Source: a virus. From it: a stretch of DNA of 64,000 nt. The notes below the pieces were generated by a model. The model worked only from the letters and a program-made list of their open reading frames with translations, was not told where the DNA came from and made no database searches. Positions 2,517-46,111 of the stretch are shown piece after piece (positions within the stretch are counted from its first letter, which is position 1; every line of letters starts with the position of its first letter). A program made the translations under genes and the position numbers. Location: IMG/VR virus record IMGVR_UViG_3300027908_000006, positions 1 through 64,000 of that record. One strand, 5' to 3'.

Positions 2517-3172
2517 CTTCGTACTCCTACTTCCTGACTGCTGCTATTGCCGGGAATCTGTCACTGCCCGAAGTGCAGATCGCTGCGGATTGCGCTGAGG
2601 AGTATGACCCAGAGCAGTTCGAGGCGGTCATGCGCCGCTGGATCATTATGGACAAGGACGATGACTTGCCGCGCCTGCGTTTGGCTGAGTGGTGGATCGG
2701 CAACGGACAGCGCGAACGGGGCGAATTCGTGAAAGTGCAGTGTGAAGCCGAGAAGGTCAGGGACAGGCTTCTTTTCTCAATCGACCCGAAAGACGCCGAA
2801 AAGTACAGCGAATTGCGGCGCATTGAGGAGCAGTTGCGAAAGTGCGATTCCTTTCCGTGCTGGATACAGGATGCGATTCGGAAACACATGGGATGGAGTT
2901 GCTTTCGTCGCGGTTTTATTCAGGAGATACATTGTACAGGTGAAAACTTCTTAAAGCACGCGGATCGTATTCTATGTCGTGAGCCAATCTGTCAGGTGTC
3001 GCTGAACAAATGGCCTATAACTGTTTTCAGGAACATGACTAACAGAAAAGGCCAGTATTCCATTGGTGGTGGTCGCTTGCGAGGATTATTCAGGAGGCCA
3101 GGCGGTATCGACATGGCGCAAGTCATTAAAGCCGAGTGGCCAAGTATCAAATTCACCTGGCCACTCGACTAA
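2513..3172 (+). CDS. TIGR02996-like (Gemmata-type repeat-companion) domain protein
   Basis: ATGA overlap with the upstream stop. DDDLPRLRLAEWWIGNGQRERGEFVKVQCE matches the PRLVYADWLEE.GD..GEFIRVQCE signature as I recall it. The rest is unassigned. Confidence 0.5.
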   Translation: MTSYSYFLTAAIAGNLSLPEVQIAADCAEEYDPEQFEAVMRRWIIMDKDDDLPRLRLAEWWIGNGQRERGEFVKVQCEAEKVRDRLLFSIDPKDAEKYSELRRIEEQLRKCDSFPCWIQDAIRKHMGWSCFRRGFIQEIHCTGENFLKHADRILCREPICQVSLNKWPITVFRNMTNRKGQYSIGGGRLRGLFRRPGGIDMAQVIKAEWPSIKFTWPLD

Positions 3173-5784
3173 CTCCTTGCTACGCCAATCCCTTCCGTGT
3201 TATGCTGTCCAGCATGGCAAAAGAAGTTTATTATTTCCCGACCGATTGGTCCAACGGCGCCCCGGACGATCCGAAGAGTCGCGGGCTGCTCGGCAGCCTG
3301 CGCCGCTTCTTCGGAGGCTGGTTCGGACCCCGCTATCGAACGGCGGCGCTGGAGTACGTCACCGAGGAGAAGGTAGCGTCCTCCCCGCAGAACGTGCGGT
3401 TGCCGTGGTTTCTACCTTACGAGGAGTACGACACCGGCACGGGCGAGACGCAGAACATGCGCAACCTGTACCGCAAGGGACTCGCCTTTCCGCCAGTGAA
3501 GGCCGCCCTCTTGAATAAGGTCTTCGGCGTCGCGGCCCTCAAGTTGCAAATCCACCCAGCGGACAAGCGGAACGATTACGACCAGCAAGTAGCGGATGGG
3601 GTGCGGTGGAACCTGGTGCGGCGGCTGGGTGGCGGCGTGCCGCGATTGGCGTGGAACCTGTTGACTCCGGCCTGTCTGGATGGCTACTCCGTCAACGAGA
3701 AGATTTGGCAGACGCAGGACACGGGTAAGTACGCCGGGAGGATCGCGCTGACGAACCTCAAGATGAAGGACACGGGGTTTGATTTGGTCCCGAAGGTGGA
3801 CCAGTTCAGCAACATCACGTCCTTCCTGGGGCTGCGCTACAACGGAGGCAAGGAGTTCCACCCGTCCGACTTCGTGACCTACGCGCACCTCAAGATGTAC
3901 GAGCGGCCCACGGGCCTCTCGGACCTGCGCGCTGTATTCGAGGCGATGTGGCTCTACGACACCGTTTGGAAGCTGCGCAGGATCGGCCTGACCACGAAAT
4001 CCTTCCCGTTCCTGAAAGGGATGTACGAGCAGGAGAGTCAGCAGCCGGGATTGAATGCGGCCTTGCGGAAGGCGAAGTCGCTCTCCTTCCTTACCGTGCC
4101 GAAGGGTTGCATGGTGGAGGCAATTGAACTGGCGGGCGGCAGCGCCGATGAGTTTAAGAACTGTATTCAGGACTTGCGGGAAGAGATTCTGATGGGGATT
4201 ACCGGGGCGTTCATGCACCAGATGGGGGCCGGTCAGAACGTCAAGCGCGGCAGTTCCGAGAAGGCGGAAAGCGTCTCAGACCTCTTCAAGTGGTTCTTGG
4301 CCGAAGAGGTGTGCGGACTCCTGAACAACGAGGATACCGGCGTCATCAAGGAGATGGTGGACTTAAACCACGTCGTCAGTGAGTACCCCACGGCGTCTCT
4401 CGACGCGATCAGCTGGGAGGAGATGCTCCAATTCGCCAACATCATCGACAAGGCGCGGACGTGGGGGATGCCGCTCTCGAAGGAGTGGTTGTCCGAGAAG
4501 TTGTCCCTGGAAGCTCCGCACGCGGATACGCCGGGAGACGCCTTGGCACCAGCACCGACGCCGGGTGCGCCTGGTTCCACAAATGGAACCAGCCCGCCAA
4601 ACGGGACGCCGTCGGATGGTGGAGGTTCCACTGTATCCCCCGATACAGTTGACAGTCCCAAGGGCGGTACGGGCGGTTCTCCCATCGACGCGGAACCGCA
4701 TAAGTTCTCAGAAGAGTACGTCGCGGAACTGGAAACCTTCGCCGCCAAGCACGGTTGGGAACCGGCGGTGCGGATGGGACACCGTGGCGGACTCAAGGGC
4801 GGTCCCGCCCGCGCCCAATCGCTTACCAAGGAGGAGATGCACAAGATCGCCGTCCAGGGCGGCAAGGCGCGGCAGGCGGGTGAACACGCTATCGGGGTAA
4901 AGAAGAACGCGGACGCTGCCACGGTGAGCGTCTTGACGGCGCAACCGAAGGTGCAGCAGTTCGCGGGCGGCTTTGACGAATCTCTTCATCCGCGAGACGA
5001 TCACGGGCAGTTCGTGGACAAGGGTGAGTTGGAGGCTGCGAAGGCCGATCTGGGCAAGGCACAGGAACTCCGCAAGAAAGTGACGAAGCCAGTGGAGCGG
5101 GCCAAGTTGGAGCAGCACTTGAAGGGGGCGGACTGGTACGGGAAGAAGGGTGGCGCGAAGCAGTCTGTGCCCTATCCTGAAACCGCTGGACACGCACTCG
5201 AGCAGGGAAAGAAGTTCGGCGTGCGGATCGTCGAAGGGGCGAGCGGTACATCGGTGAGCAAGGATCAACTGCACTCCGTCAATGAGCAAGTGGCCAAGAT
5301 TCCGGCGAAGGCATTAGAGGCCGTCACCAAGGCGGGGAGCGGTATAGACGTGGTGGGTGGCAAAGGCATCACGGATCACCCGCACAACGCTCACTTGAAA
5401 GGTGTTGTACCTCGCGGCTGGGAGAAGACCGGCAAGACATGGGACGACGTGCCCGGCGGCGGCGCGCAACATCCCAACCAGCGGACCATCATCGCGGCTC
5501 GTGGTGCTGCCAATCCTTACAGTCACGGTAGCGCCAATCTGGTCCTGCACGAACATGGGCACACCGTCGATGCGTGTTCACGAGACAGCAACAACCAGCG
5601 TCCTTCCGATCAGGCGGACTGGAAAGCAATCCACGGCAAGGTGAAGTGGCCGTCACCGTACCAGCAAGCTTATGCCGAAGAAGCATGGGCTGAGAGTTTC
5701 GCCAAGATGTACAATGGCGAGCAGACCCGCGCCGCACTGCCGCCCGAAGTGCAAGCGTATTTCACACAGAGGTTCGGCACATGA
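3136..5784 (+). CDS. Portal protein (Mu gp29/DUF935-like by context) fused to a C-terminal HExxH metalloprotease domain (PPEP / anthrax-LF-like, M34-type)
   Basis: 882-aa ORF after the terL block. The N-terminal ~460 aa is portal-sized and in portal position within a Mu-like head module. A Pro/Gly/Ser/Thr linker starts at ~4540, followed by LHPRDDHGQF (HPRD = 4987-4998). Then RGWEKTGKTWDDVPGGG...LVLHEHGHTVD (HEHGH = 5548-5562) and YAEEAWAESFAKMY. Start is uncertain: GTG 3136 overlaps the upstream gene; ATG 3202 and 3214 are alternatives. Confidence 0.7.
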   Translation: MAKYQIHLATRLTPCYANPFRVMLSSMAKEVYYFPTDWSNGAPDDPKSRGLLGSLRRFFGGWFGPRYRTAALEYVTEEKVASSPQNVRLPWFLPYEEYDTGTGETQNMRNLYRKGLAFPPVKAALLNKVFGVAALKLQIHPADKRNDYDQQVADGVRWNLVRRLGGGVPRLAWNLLTPACLDGYSVNEKIWQTQDTGKYAGRIALTNLKMKDTGFDLVPKVDQFSNITSFLGLRYNGGKEFHPSDFVTYAHLKMYERPTGLSDLRAVFEAMWLYDTVWKLRRIGLTTKSFPFLKGMYEQESQQPGLNAALRKAKSLSFLTVPKGCMVEAIELAGGSADEFKNCIQDLREEILMGITGAFMHQMGAGQNVKRGSSEKAESVSDLFKWFLAEEVCGLLNNEDTGVIKEMVDLNHVVSEYPTASLDAISWEEMLQFANIIDKARTWGMPLSKEWLSEKLSLEAPHADTPGDALAPAPTPGAPGSTNGTSPPNGTPSDGGGSTVSPDTVDSPKGGTGGSPIDAEPHKFSEEYVAELETFAAKHGWEPAVRMGHRGGLKGGPARAQSLTKEEMHKIAVQGGKARQAGEHAIGVKKNADAATVSVLTAQPKVQQFAGGFDESLHPRDDHGQFVDKGELEAAKADLGKAQELRKKVTKPVERAKLEQHLKGADWYGKKGGAKQSVPYPETAGHALEQGKKFGVRIVEGASGTSVSKDQLHSVNEQVAKIPAKALEAVTKAGSGIDVVGGKGITDHPHNAHLKGVVPRGWEKTGKTWDDVPGGGAQHPNQRTIIAARGAANPYSHGSANLVLHEHGHTVDACSRDSNNQRPSDQADWKAIHGKVKWPSPYQQAYAEEAWAESFAKMYNGEQTRAALPPEVQAYFTQRFGT

Positions 5785-9710: not shown

Positions 9711-10721
9711 ATGAAAATGCCGACAAGTCAGATGCTCGATGTCTATACGGCGCGCTTCAAGGCCGAGTTCTGGAAGGCGTGGAATGCCACTGCCGAACCG
9801 GCGCCGTGGGAGGCGTTCACACAGGTCGTGCCGAGTACCACGCGCATCGAACATTACCCGTACTTCACGCCGATCCCGCAAGTCTCGCTCTGGCAGGGCT
9901 ACCGCAATTACGGCAGCGTGTCGAGCAAGATTTACTCGCTCCAGAACTACCCGTATCACACGGAGTTCCAGTCCACCCTGGAAGACTTCGACGACGAGCA
10001 GACCGGCGCGCTGGCGATGAAGCCGAAGGAACTGGTGGAGAAGTGCAAGCTGTTCCCCGGACGGCAAACGCTCATCAGCCTGGGCAACGGCGCCTCGACG
10101 CCCTGCTTCGACGGCACCAACTTCTTCGCGGGATCGCACACCTACGGCACGGGCAACAACAACCTGACGTACACGAGCCTGGTCAACGACTCGACGACGC
10201 ACTACCTGTACGCGCTCTACTTCGGCAACAGTGTCCTCAAGCCGCTGATCTGGCAGAATCGGGCGGGGCCGGAACTGCGGACCATCGCGGGCACGGAGCA
10301 GAGCTACGAGTCGCGGCAGATTCGCTGGTGGTGCGACCTCCGCGGCGGCTACGGCTACGGCTACTGGTGGAACGCGATCAAGATGACGATTACGGGAACG
10401 CCGTCCGTCATCGACATGCTCTTGATCTTCCAACTGATTGACAACGCCTTCCGCTCCTTCACGCTACCGGTGACGCAGACGAACGAGAAACCGGAGTACA
10501 TCCACGAGCAGACGGTGTTCTCGGACAAGAACCTGTACATGATGGGCAGTATCAAGCTCCAGCAGGTTCTCCGGCAATCGCTGGGTCTGCCGGTCGTGCC
10601 GCAGTACCTCCCCGGCGGCCAGAACGTCGTCAGCGGCAACGTCCAGGCTCAGACAGTCCCTACTGTAAATCTGTACCACCAATTCGCAAGGTACGGTGTG
10701 TCGGCGCTACTAGGCACATAG
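9711..10721 (+). CDS. Major capsid protein (Mu gpT-like)
   Basis: 336 aa with a strong AAGGAG RBS. YTARFKAEFWKAWNATAEPAPWEAFTQVVPSTTRIEHYPYF follows the gpT-family N-terminal pattern. Positioned after the protease/scaffold gene. Confidence 0.7.
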   Translation: MKMPTSQMLDVYTARFKAEFWKAWNATAEPAPWEAFTQVVPSTTRIEHYPYFTPIPQVSLWQGYRNYGSVSSKIYSLQNYPYHTEFQSTLEDFDDEQTGALAMKPKELVEKCKLFPGRQTLISLGNGASTPCFDGTNFFAGSHTYGTGNNNLTYTSLVNDSTTHYLYALYFGNSVLKPLIWQNRAGPELRTIAGTEQSYESRQIRWWCDLRGGYGYGYWWNAIKMTITGTPSVIDMLLIFQLIDNAFRSFTLPVTQTNEKPEYIHEQTVFSDKNLYMMGSIKLQQVLRQSLGLPVVPQYLPGGQNVVSGNVQAQTVPTVNLYHQFARYGVSALLGT

Positions 10722-32391: not shown

Positions 32392-32445
32392 GCCGTGACT
32401 TTCGACGATATCCATCGCCCCCTATCCCAAAACAAAGGAGCATCC

Positions 32446-33744
32446 ATGAAGCGTGTGATTCTGTTCTCTCCTGTTATCGCTTTCGTGTTCGTCGCGTTGT
32501 CGTTCGTCGATGCCCGGCAGGACGTTGAGAAGAAAGTGCCCGGCTGCTGCCCCGGCGTCCAACAGGTTGCCCAGGTCGATCCGAAGAAGGCCGACGACAA
32601 GGCCAAGCCAAAGGCCGACCTCAAGAAGCACGGCCGCGGTTTCAAGTTGCCACCGAAGCATGTCCGCGACGCGATCCACCGCATCAGCGAGGCGAAGTAC
32701 GGTCACATTCGCAAGGCGTTGCCGGTTGCCACGGCAGCGGTCTATGACGCCCGCGTGCAAGGTGTCATTCCGCCCGTGGGCAATCAAGACGGCTGCGGTG
32801 ACTGCTACATGTGGTCAGGCTGTAAGGCTGGCGCGTCGGCACAGATGGTTGCGGGAGTCGTGCCGAAGGATGGCAAGTTTATGCTCGCGCCGTCTTTCGG
32901 CCTCGACTGTCACCCAGAGCTAGGAGGTTGTGATGGAGGCGACGAGCAACAGGTTGCTCAGCTGATTGCCAGTGCTGGCTGGCCGTCTGTGGCTCAGTAT
33001 GGTGGCGACGGCTACACACCGGGAACTTGCAAGCCGACGACAGGCATGACGCTGTACACGCTGTCATCCGTGATGATGGTCAGTCCGTCGTCGGGAATCG
33101 CGTCAACCCAGGACATCAAAAACGCGATTCAGGCATACGGCTTTTGCAGCATCGCGGCGGCGGCTGGCAGTGATTGGGACAACCTCGGCGGCGGCTGCAC
33201 GATCACCGGCAGCAGCACGGACATCAACCACGCGATTGGCTATGTTGGGTGGGACGACAACCATGACAACGGGGATGGTTCCAAGGGAGCTGGCATCATG
33301 CAGAACAATTGGGACACCAGTTGGGGCTGCAACTGTGCCAACACAGTCAATCCGAATCCGTCCGAGCCGGGTGGATATGCTTGGGTGAAGTGGGGTGCTG
33401 ACTCCGCAGGGACCGAAGCGTTCGTCTGCATCGCTGCCGCTGGACCTGTCCCGCCGCAACCGCCAGTGCCTCCCGTGCCGCCGATTCCCCCAACCCCGCC
33501 GACGCCGGGTATGAACCCCATCGTGTCGATCGTGGCGACGTTCCAAGATGGGACGACGCAGACGCTCATGGGTGTGCCAACGCCGGGCACGACCATCACG
33601 CCGACGACGACGTTGCAACAGCTGCTCGACATGATGCAGAAACCAATGGCGCCGCCGAAGAAGCCGGGACAAACCATGCTGGATCGACAACTGGAGTACA
33701 ACCGGCGCGAGTTGGAAGAGTCATTCGCCCCGGTGAAGCCATGA
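32446..33744 (+). CDS. Secreted papain-family (C1-like) cysteine protease
   Basis: AAAGGAG RBS and signal peptide MKRVILFSPVIAFVFVALSFVDA. Catalytic-type motifs NQDGCGDCYMWS (Cys), INHAIGYVGWDD (His) and MQNNWDTSWG (Asn/Trp). Followed by a PVPPQPPVPPVPPIPPTPPTPG linker and a short C-terminal domain. Confidence 0.65.
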   Translation: MKRVILFSPVIAFVFVALSFVDARQDVEKKVPGCCPGVQQVAQVDPKKADDKAKPKADLKKHGRGFKLPPKHVRDAIHRISEAKYGHIRKALPVATAAVYDARVQGVIPPVGNQDGCGDCYMWSGCKAGASAQMVAGVVPKDGKFMLAPSFGLDCHPELGGCDGGDEQQVAQLIASAGWPSVAQYGGDGYTPGTCKPTTGMTLYTLSSVMMVSPSSGIASTQDIKNAIQAYGFCSIAAAAGSDWDNLGGGCTITGSSTDINHAIGYVGWDDNHDNGDGSKGAGIMQNNWDTSWGCNCANTVNPNPSEPGGYAWVKWGADSAGTEAFVCIAAAGPVPPQPPVPPVPPIPPTPPTPGMNPIVSIVATFQDGTTQTLMGVPTPGTTITPTTTLQQLLDMMQKPMAPPKKPGQTMLDRQLEYNRRELEESFAPVKP

Positions 33745-35384: not shown

Positions 35385-35488
35385 CTGGAACCTCGCAGGT
35401 GGTTTGTTTCCGAAAGGCGGGTGATGTGTAGTGGAACGGCTTGCAAAGATCAATCAGCGTAATAAGCCTGGTTCAATTGAGTAGATTC

Positions 35489-35542
35489 GCCGCCGGGATG
35501 CCGTACGAGTTGAGGATTGTTTCCTCAGTGTCCCGGCGGCGA
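35489..35542. repeat. Inverted repeat / hairpin upstream of tnpB
   Basis: CGCCGCCGGGA (35489-35499) and TCCCGGCGGCG (35532-35542): an 11-bp perfect stem with a 32-nt loop and no T tract. Confidence 0.8.
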
Positions 35543-35610
35543 TGACTTTCCTCGAAAGGAAGCGAGTTACTGACCTGTCTTTTATTAACAGATTGTGTTA
35601 GTCTCTAACT

Positions 35611-36777
35611 ATGATCCTGACCTATTCCTACAAGCTGTATTTGAGCGCCACGCAAGAAAAGACTCTTGAGCGATGGTTGCGTACCTGTTGTTGGATTTAC
35701 AACCGCGCGTTGGAGCATCGCATTAAAGCGTACCAGCGGCGTAAGGAATCCGTCAGCTATCGGGATCAGCAATCATTATTGACCGAATGGCGTGGACGAA
35801 TGGGGAACTTGCGTCTTGTGCCGGTCGAATTCGAGCGCGATGCGTTGCGTCGGGTGGATCATGGTTTCAAGGCTTTCTTTCGACGACTAGCTGATGGGGA
35901 AAAGAAAGTCGGTTTTCCACGCTTTCGTTCGCACCGCAGGTATCGGTCGCTCGAATGTCTGTTTGTGCAACCGTACTTGCGTGGCGACAGAATTCGCATT
36001 CCGAACCTTGGTTTAGTCCGATGTCGTGGGCGACTCCTGCCCATTGGCAAACAACGGGGCTTACGGATTATCCATCGGGAGGGCGGCTGGTACGCGCAGA
36101 TACTCTTGGACAATGGCGTACAGGTTCCTCCGTGCAAAACGCAAACTAGCATCGGTATCGACGTGGGCCTGACTTCGTTCGCTACGCTCAGTAACGGTGA
36201 AAAGGTTGATAATCCGCGTTTTGGGCGAAAGGCTGAACGTAAGATATGTTCTCTGCAACGGCGGGTATCGCGGCGACAGGAAGGCAGTGCCAACCGCCGC
36301 AAGGTTGCTCAACGGCTGGCAAGGCAACACGAGCGAATCGCATCTCAACGACGTGCGTTCTGCCATGTCGAAGCGCGGAAGATCGTCAACCGTTTCAACC
36401 TGATTGCTTTCGAGAGCCTAAACATCACCGATATGGTGAGAAACCATAAGTTTGCGCGTTCGGTTATGGACGCGGCTTGGGGCTTCTTCGCCTTCTGCCT
36501 GATCTACAAAGCTGCAAATGCTGGTGGTCAGGCAGTTGGCGTCGATCCTCGCAGGACAAGTCAGGAATGTCCGTGGTGTGGCAAGATCGTCCCGAAGAAA
36601 CTTTCTGAGCGTCGTCACCAGTGCGAATGCAAGCCGGGTGTGGTCATCGACAGGGACCACGCGGCGGCTCTGGTGATTCTTGCTCGCGCCGTTGCTGGTA
36701 AGCGCGGCGAATCGCTTGTGGAGGAATCGACCTCTACCGCGCCATCTGTTGGTGGTGTCGGCATGTCGTTCCGGTGA
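35611..36777 (+). CDS. tnpB: TnpB (OrfB) RNA-guided endonuclease
   Basis: 388 aa. RuvC-I IGIDVG (D184), RuvC-II IAFESL (E268), zinc finger CPWCG-x14-CEC, RuvC-III VIDRDHAAALVI (D347/D349). N-terminus YKLYLSATQEKTLERWLRTCCWIYNRAL is typical of OrfB_IS605. Confidence 0.85.
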   Translation: MILTYSYKLYLSATQEKTLERWLRTCCWIYNRALEHRIKAYQRRKESVSYRDQQSLLTEWRGRMGNLRLVPVEFERDALRRVDHGFKAFFRRLADGEKKVGFPRFRSHRRYRSLECLFVQPYLRGDRIRIPNLGLVRCRGRLLPIGKQRGLRIIHREGGWYAQILLDNGVQVPPCKTQTSIGIDVGLTSFATLSNGEKVDNPRFGRKAERKICSLQRRVSRRQEGSANRRKVAQRLARQHERIASQRRAFCHVEARKIVNRFNLIAFESLNITDMVRNHKFARSVMDAAWGFFAFCLIYKAANAGGQAVGVDPRRTSQECPWCGKIVPKKLSERRHQCECKPGVVIDRDHAAALVILARAVAGKRGESLVEESTSTAPSVGGVGMSFR

Positions 36778-36836
36778 AGCAAGTATGCGTGCTGGCTCTA
36801 ACGAACCAAGTATGTAATTACCAAAGGAAGCGTTCC

Positions 36837-37316
36837 ATGTTGAGTCTTCTCCTGTCCGCGACCCTGTTTCTACCCTTCGCCGAGAAACCGCTGTGTCCGT
36901 GCCTCTCCACCTGCCGGTGCGATGCTGACAGCTGCTTCTGTGATGCCAACGAGAAATGCACCAAGAGTTGCTACTGCGACACGCTCTTCGCCCAGGCCGT
37001 TGTGCCGGTTCCTGCTCCTGTCAAGACCATTCCCGGCGCCCCGTTCGAGTGGCGCTACACCGACGACCGGACGCAGGCCGGACTGTTTCAGGACGGCGTG
37101 CAAGTGGGAGCTTGGCGCTTCGCTGATAAGGCGTTCCGCAAGCTCAATGGCAATGTGTGGGGCGAGTTCTGCCCGTGTCCGACTGTGCCGCCGTCTGAGC
37201 CGACCGTGACGTATACGCAGACGTTCCAGGGGGGTGGTGGCTCCGCTTGCTCTGGTCCGGGTTGTGGTACTTCGGCCCCGCGCGTCGGCATCCTCGGGCG
37301 GAGGCAGAAGAAGTGA
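36837..37316 (+). CDS. Secreted Cys-rich protein (repeated CxC motifs)
   Basis: AAAGGAAG RBS and hydrophobic N-terminus MLSLLLSATLFLPFA. Cluster CPCLSTCRCDADSCFCDANEKCTKSCYC. Confidence 0.45.
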   Translation: MLSLLLSATLFLPFAEKPLCPCLSTCRCDADSCFCDANEKCTKSCYCDTLFAQAVVPVPAPVKTIPGAPFEWRYTDDRTQAGLFQDGVQVGAWRFADKAFRKLNGNVWGEFCPCPTVPPSEPTVTYTQTFQGGGGSACSGPGCGTSAPRVGILGRRQKK

Positions 37317-43717: not shown

Positions 43718-44620
43718 ATGCCTCTGATTTGCTACACGCCCCGGAAGTTCAGCCGAAACTCTCAGACGCTCATCGACCACGCGAATACGATCTTCGCGGA
43801 GTATCAGGCCCAAGGGTATGTGCTTACCCTCCGTCAACTTTTTTACCAGTTCGTGTCCAGGGACTTGATTCCGAACACCATGCCGAGTTACAAGAATCTC
43901 GGCAGCGTCATCAATGACGCGCGCTTGGCCGGGCTGGTCGATTGGGCTTTGATGGAAGATCGGACCCGGAACCTCAAGAGCCAGCCGTGCTGGGCTTCTC
44001 CGTCGTCGATCATCTCGGCTTGTGCGGATCAGTTCCGCATCGACAAGTGGGCCAGTCAGACTCACCGGCCTGAAATCTGGATTGAGAAAGACGCGCTCGC
44101 TGGTGTGTTCGAGCGGGTCTGTCAGGAGTTGCAAGTGCCCTACTTCTCTTGCCGTGGCTACACGTCGCAGTCGGAAATGTGGGTTGCCGGTCAGCGGTTG
44201 AAAGGCTGGCTCAAGGCCGATCAGAAGCCGGTTATCTTCCACTTCGGTGACCACGACCCCAGCGGGATCGACATGAGCCGCGACATTACGGAGCGGCTTG
44301 AACTGTTCATGGGCGGCGTGCAGTTCAACCGATTGGCCTTGAACATGGAACAGGTGGAAGAATACGAACCACCGCCGAACCCGGCGAAGATCACGGACAG
44401 CCGCGCAGCTGAATACATCCGCGTTTACGGCCGCGAGTCGTGGGAGTTGGACGCACTCCCGCCGGATGTACTGGCCGGTCTGGTGCGAGACTCCATCCTC
44501 TCCATCCGCGACGAGTACGCCTGGCAAGAGGCGGTCGAACGGGAAGAGACGCATCGTCGGCAGCTGGCGGCGGTATCCGAACAATGGGCTACTATCACGG
44601 AGAATCTATCCGATGAATAA
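43718..44620 (+). CDS. Spo11 / TopoVI-A / JetD-like winged-helix + Toprim protein
   Basis: AGGAG RBS. LTLRQLFYQFVSR (5Y-CAP-like Tyr), EIWIEKDALAGVFE (Toprim Glu) and HFGDHDPSGIDM (DxD). Confidence 0.55.
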   Translation: MPLICYTPRKFSRNSQTLIDHANTIFAEYQAQGYVLTLRQLFYQFVSRDLIPNTMPSYKNLGSVINDARLAGLVDWALMEDRTRNLKSQPCWASPSSIISACADQFRIDKWASQTHRPEIWIEKDALAGVFERVCQELQVPYFSCRGYTSQSEMWVAGQRLKGWLKADQKPVIFHFGDHDPSGIDMSRDITERLELFMGGVQFNRLALNMEQVEEYEPPPNPAKITDSRAAEYIRVYGRESWELDALPPDVLAGLVRDSILSIRDEYAWQEAVEREETHRRQLAAVSEQWATITENLSDE

Positions 44621-45629
44621 GTCTCTGCTACTCAGTGAAATCAGGATCGACGGCGGCACACAGATGCGCGTAGAGATCGACCAAGAGTACGTCGAAGAAC
44701 TGGCCGATGTGCTACGCGGCGGCGGGAAACTTCCGAATGCCGTCGTCTTCCACGACGGGGCGCATTACTGGCTGGGGGGTGGCTTCCACCGCTACATCGG
44801 TCACGAGAAAGCCGGAATACCTGCAATGCCCTGCGAGGTCCGCGTAGGCACTCAGCGTGACGCGATTATCTTCGCGGCAGGTGACAATTCCGACCACGGC
44901 TTGCGAAGGTCCAATGAGGACAAGCGTAAGGCCGTGACGGCGCTGCTAACTGACGAGCAGTGGTCGCAGGCGAGCAACCGATGGGTTGCGGAGCAATGTA
45001 AGGTCGGGGATCAGTTGGTTGCCACTGTCCGAGAAGAGATAGAGGCTGGTGCGCGATCGCGCACCAGCGACAATAACGGATCGACTAACGGGCAAACTCG
45101 CACGGATAGGCGTGGTCGTCAGCAACCGGCGAAGAAGCCGAAACCCGGTCGTAAACTCTGTCCGGCCTGCACGCGGAAAGGCGTTCGCGCCAACTGTCCC
45201 GATTGCCGCGACCTGAACCGCAAGGAAGGTAAGCCCAACAAAAAGGCAGGCACGGCTACAGACCCCAGCGGTGAGAAGGACTGTTTCGGGAACGAGGTTC
45301 CGAAGCGCTGCCGCGATGCTCTCTTCGATCCGTGGATACAGGACACCTTCGACATGCTTGCGGCGATGAACGACAAGATCCTCGCCGCACGCATTCCCGA
45401 CAGTATCGAGAAGCGGAAGAAGCGTTACCCGTTCTTTGACGCGAAGGACATAGCCGACGGCGCGATCTTCGTCCAGCAATACCTTGACAAACTTCTTGAC
45501 CACGTTAAGGAAAATCGCCCTGCCGCTGTCTGTCCAATGTGTCAAGGGAAAGGCTGCTCTGACTGCCGAAGTTCTGGTCTTGTGTCCCGCAATCTTTATC
45601 AGCAGTTGAAGGACAAGTTGAAATGTTGA
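44613..45629 (+). CDS. ParB/Sulfiredoxin-domain protein with a Cys-rich C-terminal region
   Basis: IRIDGGTQMR...VVFHDGAHYWLGGGFHRYIGHEKAG is the ParB N-terminal domain pattern. A basic linker carries the 22-bp palindrome. CPAC/CPDC and CPMCQGKGCSDC clusters follow. Confidence 0.65.
   Translation: MNKSLLLSEIRIDGGTQMRVEIDQEYVEELADVLRGGGKLPNAVVFHDGAHYWLGGGFHRYIGHEKAGIPAMPCEVRVGTQRDAIIFAAGDNSDHGLRRSNEDKRKAVTALLTDEQWSQASNRWVAEQCKVGDQLVATVREEIEAGARSRTSDNNGSTNGQTRTDRRGRQQPAKKPKPGRKLCPACTRKGVRANCPDCRDLNRKEGKPNKKAGTATDPSGEKDCFGNEVPKRCRDALFDPWIQDTFDMLAAMNDKILAARIPDSIEKRKKRYPFFDAKDIADGAIFVQQYLDKLLDHVKENRPAAVCPMCQGKGCSDCRSSGLVSRNLYQQLKDKLKC
45046..45067. repeat. 22-bp perfect palindrome CTGGTGCGCGATCGCGCACCAG, copy 2
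   Basis: Identical to 6634-6655. It sits in the same reading phase and again encodes GARSRTS, inside the ParB-like gene. Confidence 0.95.
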
Positions 45630-46111
45630 ATATCAAAACGCGGATTCTTTTCAATGGGAGTCCAAGATTCTGTAGATTGTGCAATCAGGACAAACCGCTT
45701 GTCGAATTCTACAAGGCCAAGCAAAGGAATGGAAAGTGGTATTTCTTGCCCTATTGTAAACGATGCTATCTTGACCGCATCGCAAAGTGGAAGAAAGACA
45801 ATCCAGGCAAAAACTCTGCCGCTGCCCGAAGGTGTCATATCCGCACCAAATACGGAATGACCCAGCAAGAATACGATTCGCTGGTGGAGGCACAAGGAAA
45901 TCTCTGTGAAATCTGCCAGCGTCCAGAGACGAGTATTACGAAAAAAACCGGCGTTGTTCATCCATTGTCTGTCGATCACGACCACGAAACGAACGCAGTG
46001 CGAGGTTTGCTTTGCGGGGCTTGTAACCGAATGCTTGGTTGTGCTGGAGACGATATTACTGTGCTGCGGTCAGCAATCGAATATCTCACAAGAAATCAGG
46101 TGGTCGCGTGA
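45623..46111 (+). CDS. Endonuclease VII-family (T4 gp49-like) junction-resolving nuclease
   Basis: CEICQRPE...LSVDHDHETNAVRGLLCGACNRMLG is the Endonuclease_7 signature. The gene is noticeably AT-richer by eye. Confidence 0.75.
   Translation: MLNIKTRILFNGSPRFCRLCNQDKPLVEFYKAKQRNGKWYFLPYCKRCYLDRIAKWKKDNPGKNSAAARRCHIRTKYGMTQQEYDSLVEAQGNLCEICQRPETSITKKTGVVHPLSVDHDHETNAVRGLLCGACNRMLGCAGDDITVLRSAIEYLTRNQVVA

Follow-up and report, generated by a model that had tools for sequence, protein, structure and literature searches.

A tnpB gene with a structured guide RNA in a tailed-phage genome, within a putative remnant of an IS1595-type transposon

The usual account of TnpB builds on the peel-and-paste cycle of IS200/IS605 elements, which leaves no scar. 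The presence of a tnpB gene in an element that duplicates its target, in a genome without a transposase, raises the question of what an RNA-guided nuclease serves there. Here, we consider such a gene in the virus record IMGVR_UViG_3300027908_000006, of which positions 1 to 64,000 were analysed (this whole stretch of 64,000 nucleotides is called the window in what follows). The window is a tailed-phage genome, whose tnpB gene had been singled out in an earlier note as a solo element. Our answer is that the segment 35563-36822 is, on balance, probably a ~1.26-kb non-autonomous remnant of an IS1595-type element, which carries tnpB and an omega RNA as its only cargo and would act in homing or exclusion. 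Among 97 open reading frames (ORFs) of the window, none matched a Y1 transposase, a serine recombinase or resolvase, a DDE transposase or an integrase in Pfam or PHROGs, which bears out the earlier statement that neither TnpA nor a serine recombinase is present. The locus is made up of the following parts.

35487-35498 / 35531-35542, + strand: perfect 12-bp inverted repeat with a 32-nt loop, in phage intergenic DNA outside the element
35548-35552 / 35557-35561: 5-bp hairpin TTCCT/AGGAA, left of or across the left duplication
35553..35554, + strand: CG dinucleotide, candidate target-adjacent motif (TAM; YG), directly 5' of the left duplication
35555..35564, + strand: left copy of the target-site duplication AAAGGAAG, 8 bp, the identity running to 10 bp
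35563..35610, + strand: degenerate left end and tnpB 5' leader, terminal inverted repeat not recognisable
35611..36777, + strand: tnpB, 388 aa
36606..36783, + strand: structured omega-RNA scaffold of 8 helices, overlapping the last 172 nt of tnpB
36795..36822, + strand: right terminal inverted repeat, doubling as the 3' end of the omega-RNA scaffold (...GGCTCTAACGAACCAAGTATGTAATTACC)
36823..36842, + strand: right duplication copy (36823-36830/32) and predicted guide/target AAAGGAAGCGTTCCATGTTG
36837..37316, + strand: downstream phage gene, a 159-aa ORFan with no homologue except itself

Judged by profiles and alignments, the ORF at 35611-36777 is a bona fide TnpB and apparently an intact RNA-guided nuclease. 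Three Pfam families are matched, all past their cut-offs (HTH_OrfB_IS605, 9e-9; OrfB_IS605, 4e-22; Cas12f1-like_TNB, 1e-15), and the architecture of N-terminal helix-turn-helix (HTH)/REC, split RuvC and zinc ribbon (TNB) is present. The NCBIfam model guided_TnpB gives 249 bits vs a cut-off of 100, while the narrower models stay under theirs (IS200_TnpB, 220 vs 425 bits; IS607_TnpB, 124 vs 350 bits). The best natural relative of solved structure is ISDra2 TnpB (8bf8, 8exa and 8h1j; E ~1e-45 over residues 6-362, phmmer), with D191, E278 and D361 as its catalytic residues. Counted along the phmmer alignment with 8bf8, these pair with D184, E268 and D349 of the window protein. Two residues of the triad as first read, D184 and E268, therefore stand, and the third, which had been left as D347 or D349, is D349, since it is this residue that pairs with D361. 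In an alignment with 17 homologues (57-76% identity), the triad is invariant together with C320, C323, C338 and C340 (CxxC...CxC), the CPWCG...CEC zinc finger that had already been recognised. Because the four cysteines are invariant, the CxC form of the second zinc pair is a feature of the clade and not damage. The profile searches and the aligned catalytic residues, which the earlier note had put forward as the check, thus agree with its view of a solo TnpB that has kept its RuvC triad and is not a dead derivative of the TldR type. Relative to all close homologues (394-400 aa), the window gene has an extra base near 36745; the C-terminal ~11 residues are frameshifted and the stop comes 10 codons early. 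The ancestral tail, ...SMRAGSNEPSM*, can still be read in another frame, with its TAA at 36815-36817 inside the right terminal repeat. This change affects a region beyond RuvC-III, where tnpB overlaps the RNA gene.

The right boundary of the element is sharp. DNA similarity in every relative runs past the tnpB stop to ...CCAAGTATGTAATTGCC and then ends abruptly, as seen in six and then in nine loci; in the window this point is 36822/36823, and the sequences beyond it are unrelated among the nine. The right end of the window copy agrees with the repeat consensus of the relatives at 16/18 positions. Between the end of the tnpB stop (36777) and the next ATG (36837) there is a spacer of 59 nt, as had been counted before, and 45 nt of it belong to the element. 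The direct repeat previously noticed in this spacer is present as well (GAAGCAAGTATG / GAACCAAGTATG at 36776-36787 / 36803-36814), both of its CAAGTATG copies lying inside the element, in the omega-RNA 3' region and the right terminal repeat. Since homology to the relatives stops so sharply at 36822/36823, the guide would be set by the adjacent phage DNA, as the earlier note had supposed. The predicted guide, AAAGGAAGCGTTCCATGTTG (36823-36842), takes in both the Shine-Dalgarno sequence and the start codon (ATG at 36837) of the 159-aa ORFan downstream, and no second match to it with <=3 mismatches occurs in the window.

The relatives reveal what kind of element this is. A search with the right-end 18-mer found inverted copies just upstream of tnpB in relatives, and local alignment of the upstream regions against the reverse complement of the downstream regions, with shuffled controls, gave terminal inverted repeats of 21-28 bp in seven of them, with scores well above the controls. 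The left repeat lies 10-36 nt upstream of the ATG. Terminal inverted repeats are found in more distant clades too (L050, L055, L015, L016, L067 and others). The possibility that the left and right ends resemble each other as two copies of one palindrome was rejected, the palindrome being confined to the inner ~14 nt; the outer 17 nt therefore form a genuine inverted repeat. Flanking direct repeats initially seemed to vary in length (6-12 bp); once the terminal repeat was registered as GGnnA...TnnCC, with the register of L023 shifted by one base, they were replaced by a constant 8 bp. The flanking 8-mers compared in this register, with the length of the terminal inverted repeat (TIR) where one was measured, are the following.

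Window: left AAAGGAAG, right AAAGGAAG, 8/8
L001: TIR 26 bp; left ATTTCTAA, right ATTTCTAA, 8/8
L002: TIR 21 bp; left AAAGTCTC, right AAAGTCTC, 8/8
L115: TIR 25 bp; left AAAACTAT, right AAAACTAG, 7/8
L055: left ATCGTAAA, right ATCGTGAA, 7/8
L026: TIR 27 bp; left AAAAACTC, right AATAACTA, 6/8
L123: TIR 23/23, perfect; left AACAGTTC, right AGGAGCAC, 4/8
L112: TIR 23 bp; left ATGAACAA, right AATAAACG, 3/8
L023: TIR 28 bp; left AAATGATC, right ATCTACGG, unrelated

According to PMC13565253, both terminal inverted repeats and target duplications are absent from elements of the IS200/IS605 and IS607 kinds. The ends described here, whose repeat type is common to elements of IS1595-family transposases (see below), thus contradict the analogy with IS200/IS605 from which the earlier note had argued. 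The features of IS607 are likewise missing: there is no Resolvase domain in the window, and inverted repeats and duplications are present. TnpBs at 41-57% identity (L029, L030, L031, L033 and L044) carry a different terminal repeat, GGGTAGTGTCC...CGCGTTG, so that the type of end changes within the TnpB clade; L030 has a second, tandem copy of the 18-mer beyond the right arm.

In the window itself, the insertion is flanked by AAAGGAAG(CG) at 35555 and 36823, a repeat that had been missed. The exact 10-bp direct repeat AAAGGAAGCG (35555-35564 and 36823-36832) is the longest of the region, and the 10-mer occurs only twice on both strands of the 64-kb window, both times at a junction of the element. 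Upstream of tnpB, no stretch without + strand ORFs in the late region is longer than 35385-35610, as the description of the longest non-coding gap had implied, and no intrinsic-terminator or promoter consensus was found there. The inverted repeat reported from this gap is indeed perfect, with a length of 12 bp instead of 11 bp (35487-35498 / 35531-35542), and it may mark the end of the late transcription unit. The 5-bp hairpin also exists, at 35548-35552 / 35557-35561. Neither of the two is a left-end structure of the element, as both lie left of or across the left duplication, in phage DNA. Removal of the element and one 8-mer reconstructs an empty site, ...GACTTTCCTCG AAAGGAAG CGTTCCATG..., in which the insertion point has the intergenic hairpins on its left and the ribosome-binding site of the following gene on its right, the duplication having left that gene its own Shine-Dalgarno sequence. 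The reconstructed target is rich in overlapping short hairpins (35548-35561, 36826-36836), namely TTCCT-CGAA-AGGAA and GGAA-GCG-TTCC, and the duplication copies one arm of each.

The left end of the window copy has not kept its repeat in recognisable form. A profile of the relatives' repeats matches the right end only (36806-36823, E 0.007; nhmmer), and in the 48 nt from the left duplication to the ATG (35563-35610) similarity to the expected repeat reaches ~60% at most. The window copy is one-ended and should therefore be immobile by transposition. The same one-ended state is seen in the relatives L022, L117 and L122.

The repeat consensus of the tnpB relatives, GGnnAtTAyATAC, and the duplication of 8 bp resemble those of the ISNwi1 group (IS1595 family) in the ISfinder table, a lead that was then tested. 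One contig, L050, carries a second element at 237-1579, 1.4 kb from its tnpB element (3027-4204), with a similar repeat (GGGAATTACATACTTTACTCCC, reverse complement GGGAATTACATACTTGATTCCC). This second element encloses an IS1595-type transposase gene and no tnpB. Its ORF at 856-1431 matches Zn_ribbon_IS1595 (1.4e-8, above the cut-off) and the first 21 positions of DDE_Tnp_IS1595, and the start of the DDE domain runs directly into the C-terminal tail, which we read as an internal deletion of the DDE core. The remnant is 36-50% identical to annotated IS1595-family transposases on plasmids. A 403-aa ORF in the reverse direction had also been considered as the transposase of L050 and was set aside, as it has no Pfam match, the forward ORF being the transposase remnant. 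Annotated IS1595 transposase genes are themselves preceded by GGGGACATATATAC (Methylocystis, L125) and GGGGATTATGTAT (Roseomonas, L127), a similarity seen by eye. Around three annotated plasmid IS1595 genes, searches for inverted repeats did not recover both ends, and the similarity there is of left ends only. The 8-bp length fits, as IS1595-family elements make 8-bp direct repeats (PMC12561309). The circumstantial evidence of shared ends and duplication length suggests that the tnpB units are transposase-less, cargo-carrying derivatives of IS1595-type elements, moved in trans. A full-text search of the literature returned no title or abstract opening that links TnpB with IS1595.

What travels with the nuclease gene is a predicted RNA. 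For its analysis, 250 nt ending 20 nt beyond the right end were aligned from nine loci, the window and eight independent relatives. The RNAalifold consensus has eight helices with 46 pairs, in which 92% of the cells are standard pairs. Changes on both sides are found in 18/46 pairs, vs 10.6 +/- 1.9 in column shuffles (0/500 reach 18), and controls in which the partners were slid by 1-3 columns give 2-7 compensatory pairs. The helices lie inside coding sequence, so that constraint on the protein does not account for the compensatory changes. Folded on its own, the window sequence forms the same helices (z = -3.0), and 42/46 pairs are standard in it. No Rfam model matches this RNA at gathering or relaxed thresholds. 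The comparison of the nine loci thus shows a conserved structured RNA that ends at the sharp right boundary, in accordance with the omega-type RNA that had been predicted across the 3' end of tnpB and the right end; the omega RNA is presumably expressed.

The flanks of the insertions contain a further regularity. In the nine independent insertions whose left boundary can be defined, the dinucleotide just ahead of the left 8-mer is YG without exception (CG, TG, CG, TG, CG, CG, TG, TG, TG), and the first base of the 8-mer is A in 9/9. By our own arithmetic, with p(Y) ~0.5 and p(G) ~0.3, YG in all nine has a chance of ~4e-8. There is no mirror-image motif on the right side, where the repeat always ends CC. 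We propose YG as a candidate TAM, with a guide that would start with the 3' duplication. Where the element is present, the repeat end ...CC stands before the full match to the guide, and the left copy next to YG matches 10 nt only, as would be expected with YG as the TAM and a guide beginning at the 3' duplication.

These parts can be assembled into a model. The element would have been inserted by IS1595 (ISNwi1-like) transposition, duplicating AAAGGAAG downstream of the late-operon hairpins and ahead of the ribosome-binding site of the next gene, and its left repeat would since have been lost, with the result that a transposase could no longer move it. The omega RNA would read past the right repeat, its guide being formed by the right duplication and the downstream phage DNA. 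In an element-free genome, the 20-mer AAAGGAAGCGTTCCATGTTG would be contiguous and preceded by CG, the candidate TAM, so that TnpB and its RNA would cut element-free alleles only, at YG-AAAGGAAGCGTTCCATGTTG. If the two genomes met in co-infection or recombination, repair of the cut genome would use the carrier as template, a task that the ERF and YqaJ proteins of the phage could perform, and either the element would be copied in (homing) or the competitor would be destroyed. This would correspond to the 'non-restorative homing' into co-infecting phages that PMC13565253 discusses for OMEGA systems.

The distribution and composition of the gene bear on its origin. At E <= 1e-20, a large protein database holds 2737 homologues, the best of them 76% identical. 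The eleven closest clusters with readable contigs (57-76% identity) are all on phage-like contigs and lie beside different genes. Their neighbours, by contig, are RecT/YqaJ/RusA; UvrD and radical SAM; integrase, Thy1 and Gp157; CsrA, helicase and methylase; and, on further contigs, GpA terminase; DNA polymerase A and RecA; and a Mu F-like protein. No transposase, Y1 included, was found on the contigs or flanks of these 11 close relatives. GTDB genomes and IMG/VR contain TnpB relatives at 49% identity or less only. As TnpB genes are common in phages (368/50,697 phage records match TnpB), the fact first noted, that a phage carries one, is by itself ordinary. The GC content at third codon positions (GC3) is 0.58 in tnpB vs 0.61-0.86 in 17 large phage genes, in line with the excess of A/T-ending codons that had been estimated by eye, and the overall GC content is 0.548 vs 0.585 for the window; in most of the loci of the relatives compared, tnpB is less GC-rich than its surroundings. 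Given the lower GC3 and the position of the closest homologues at unrelated places in unrelated phage contigs, composition and comparison show the element to be foreign to the phage. Two relatives have a small DNA-binding gene immediately ahead of tnpB that runs into the tnpB start: a ribbon-helix-helix (RHH) gene in L002 (9873-10004) and an HTH_17 gene in L121 (384-590). The RHH gene is cargo of the element, since it is inside the left terminal repeat (9811-9831).

Alleles of the phage that lack the element were searched for in several ways. The same phage is present in at least seven contigs from several samples, with the tnpB element in all of them; two contigs compared with the window are 100% identical over ~10 kb. 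An exact-protein look-up of the downstream gene returned the same phage only, always occupied, while IMG/VR scans with the flanking proteins returned distant phages only, without synteny, and the reconstructed empty-site 25-mer had no match in the scan. Two IMG/VR matches to the right-end 17-mer were discarded as chance, since they are inside unrelated genes. No signal of co-conversion was seen, the contig pairs with identical TnpBs all being of the same strain (>=99% identity).

Several points weigh against the model of an IS1595-type remnant active in homing. The IS1595 link comes from one defective element (that of L050, the TnpB of which is 39% identical) and from repeat similarity, and no full-length IS1595 transposase was found in or beside any tnpB element of the close clade. 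In the window no left inverted repeat is detectable, the left boundary being set by the 10-bp repeat alone, and 3/9 insertions (L023, L112 and L123) are without a convincing duplication. YG could be a target preference of the transposase and not a TAM, and the frameshifted C-terminal tail may affect the activity of TnpB. No empty-site allele of the phage was found. Finally, by an argument made in PMC13565253, TnpB is of less benefit to a DDE cut-and-paste element than to one that moves by peel-and-paste.

Other explanations have been considered in the light of the same evidence. The lost left repeat and the frameshifted, shortened C-terminal tail, together with the lack of a transposase in the window and of any presence/absence polymorphism, would suit a decaying selfish remnant, in which tnpB is heading to a pseudogene and is inactive and tolerated by the phage. 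We consider this unlikely, as the frame of 388 codons is uninterrupted past RuvC-III, the catalytic and zinc residues and the omega scaffold (42/46 pairs) have been kept, the right end agrees with the consensus at 16/18 positions and the intact element recurs in several samples. Co-option is improbable in our opinion, whether as a weapon that cuts the site of related phages without copying or as a regulator that modulates the downstream gene through TAM-independent binding to its own flank: the guide does overlap the start of the next gene (ribosome-binding site and ATG), the close TnpB clade is on phage-like contigs only, and phage nucleases are reported to mediate interference competition (PMC11620839), yet the guide of each relative is simply the DNA that happens to lie beyond the right end, as a selfish element would lead one to expect and a selected target would not, the RuvC triad, unlike that of TldR, is intact, and the window holds no second target of the guide.

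There is little to recommend a classical IS200/IS605 (IS1341-type) solo tnpB, moved in trans by a Y1 TnpA through peel-and-paste, with subterminal hairpin ends and a TAM in the flank on the left. In its favour are ISDra2 TnpB as the best homologue of solved structure, the common occurrence of solo TnpBs between IS200/605-like ends (PMC10691335) and a small palindrome in the relatives, GGCTC..GAGCC, ~17 nt inside the right end. Nevertheless, the 220 bits of the window protein for NCBIfam IS200_TnpB, which in themselves would favour this explanation, are under the 425-bit cut-off, the relatives have terminal inverted repeats with a non-palindromic outer 17 nt and 8-bp duplications, the upstream hairpins are outside the duplication, and there is no Y1 transposase in the window or next to close relatives. 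Lastly, that the complementarity of the ends acts at the RNA level (the 5' leader pairing with the omega 3' end in the control of translation or processing, with flanking repeats of other origin) is very improbable, since, even with the right arm in the omega-RNA 3' region and the left arm abutting the tnpB start codon, the same repeat type flanks an IS1595 transposase gene without tnpB and precedes annotated IS1595 transposases, the 8-bp duplications are left unexplained, and tnpB and the RNA persist in the window, L022, L117 and L122, where the left arm is missing.

The remaining features of the window are those of the phage that carries the element. The following genes were recognised in it.

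64-1446: terminase (Pfam/PHROGs scan)
Window: portal, protease and major head protein (domain scan)
Window: tail morphogenesis protein (domain scan)
Window: ERF, YqaJ, RusA, helicase and topoisomerase (domain scans)
44466-45629: ParB-like protein
45623-46111: endonuclease VII

There are no tRNA genes in the window. HTH_3/HTH_31 repressor-like proteins, the ParB-like protein and the topoisomerase are present and no integrase or recombinase was detected among the 97 ORFs, which would suit a virulent phage or a plasmid-like prophage. An HNH_3 endonuclease is encoded as well and might be a homing endonuclease of the protein-guided kind in the genome that also carries tnpB. A papain-like cysteine peptidase (Peptidase_C1 by the precomputed annotation of the identical contig L110), with a signal-like N-terminus and a proline-rich linker, is encoded at 32395-33744, where the late region ends; its IMG/VR phage relatives are 37-61% identical.

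The preferred explanation, that of an IS1595-type remnant with tnpB and omega RNA, bears on how such genes are to be understood. If the guide spans the duplicated 8-mer and the TAM is just outside it, insertion-free alleles would be recognised, which is the logic of homing endonucleases and would amount to a natural gene drive among phages. If this is true, YG and AAAGGAAGCGTTCCATGTTG would be the TAM/guide pair of a compact nuclease of 388 aa. For annotation, the locus is a warning that a solo TnpB is not automatically an IS200/IS605 element. By computation from about a dozen loci, the less ordinary features here appear to be the IS1595-type architecture, a guide that would span the duplication and have YG beside it, and a close clade that is apparently restricted to phages.

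The free-standing homing endonucleases of T-even and other phages (Seg, Mob, HNH) offer an analogy of function only: as with them, a nuclease gene placed between conserved phage genes would direct the cutting of genomes that lack it and would then be copied in by recombination, but they recognise their target by protein, whereas the window system would use an RNA guide and a TAM. TldR is likewise a phage TnpB homologue with a 3' guide RNA; it differs in that the RuvC triad of the window protein is intact and that the guide matches its own flank and not a host promoter. ISDra2 TnpB with its omega RNA (IS200/IS605 family; PDB 8BF8, 8EXA, 8H1J) resembles the window system in domain order, in the positions of the RuvC D/E/D residues and in a guide RNA that is encoded across the 3' end of the gene and reads into the right flank. 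In contrast, the window has no Y1 TnpA, and instead of subterminal hairpins and an unduplicated target there are terminal inverted repeats and 8-bp duplications; further differences are a second zinc pair of the CxC form, YG in place of TTGAT as the candidate TAM, and a phage as the replicon.

Among transposons, IS1595-family elements, with derivatives that carry passengers or lack the transposase, share with the relatives described here the repeat starts (GGnnAtTAyATAC) and the 8-bp duplications, often A/T-rich at the start (PMC12561309), and differ in their cargo, which here is tnpB and omega RNA instead of a Zn-ribbon DDE transposase, and in that the window copy has one recognisable end. 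TnpBs in DDE transposons with inverted repeats form six branches in the part of Altae-Tran et al. 2023 (PMC10691335) that deals with them, and IS630, ISL2 and IS1031 are the families carrying TnpB that a passage of PMC13565253 names. As far as those accounts describe them, these TnpBs are like the present ones in having symmetrical ends, the tnpB 3' end <250 bp from the transposon end, and solo copies within the ends of transposase elements. The end type here is IS1595, which is absent from the families named in the relevant passages of the two sources; moreover, the close relatives here have no transposase in cis, and the lineage is phage-borne.

Fanzor1 of eukaryotic DDE transposons is likewise an RNA-guided RuvC nuclease on a transposon with terminal inverted repeats and duplications. 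In both cases the nuclease rides a duplication-making transposon, and the duplication must therefore be accommodated in target recognition. We suggest tentatively, as a possibility that we would not call probable, that a phage-restricted TnpB/omega lineage lives on IS1595-type transposons, that its guide, starting with the 3' duplication, and its TAM, YG, recognise the unduplicated empty site, and that RNA-guided homing between co-infecting phages, in the manner of a free-standing endonuclease, would continue even after the ends have decayed. If this is true, it would be a prokaryotic counterpart of the arrangement of Fanzor in DDE transposons, with another solution to the problem of the duplication: in Fanzor1, as a passage of PMC13565253 has it, the 5' duplication is in the TAM and the 3' duplication in the scaffold, whereas here the variable 8-bp duplication appears as the first 8 nt of the predicted guide, and the conserved YG is outside it.

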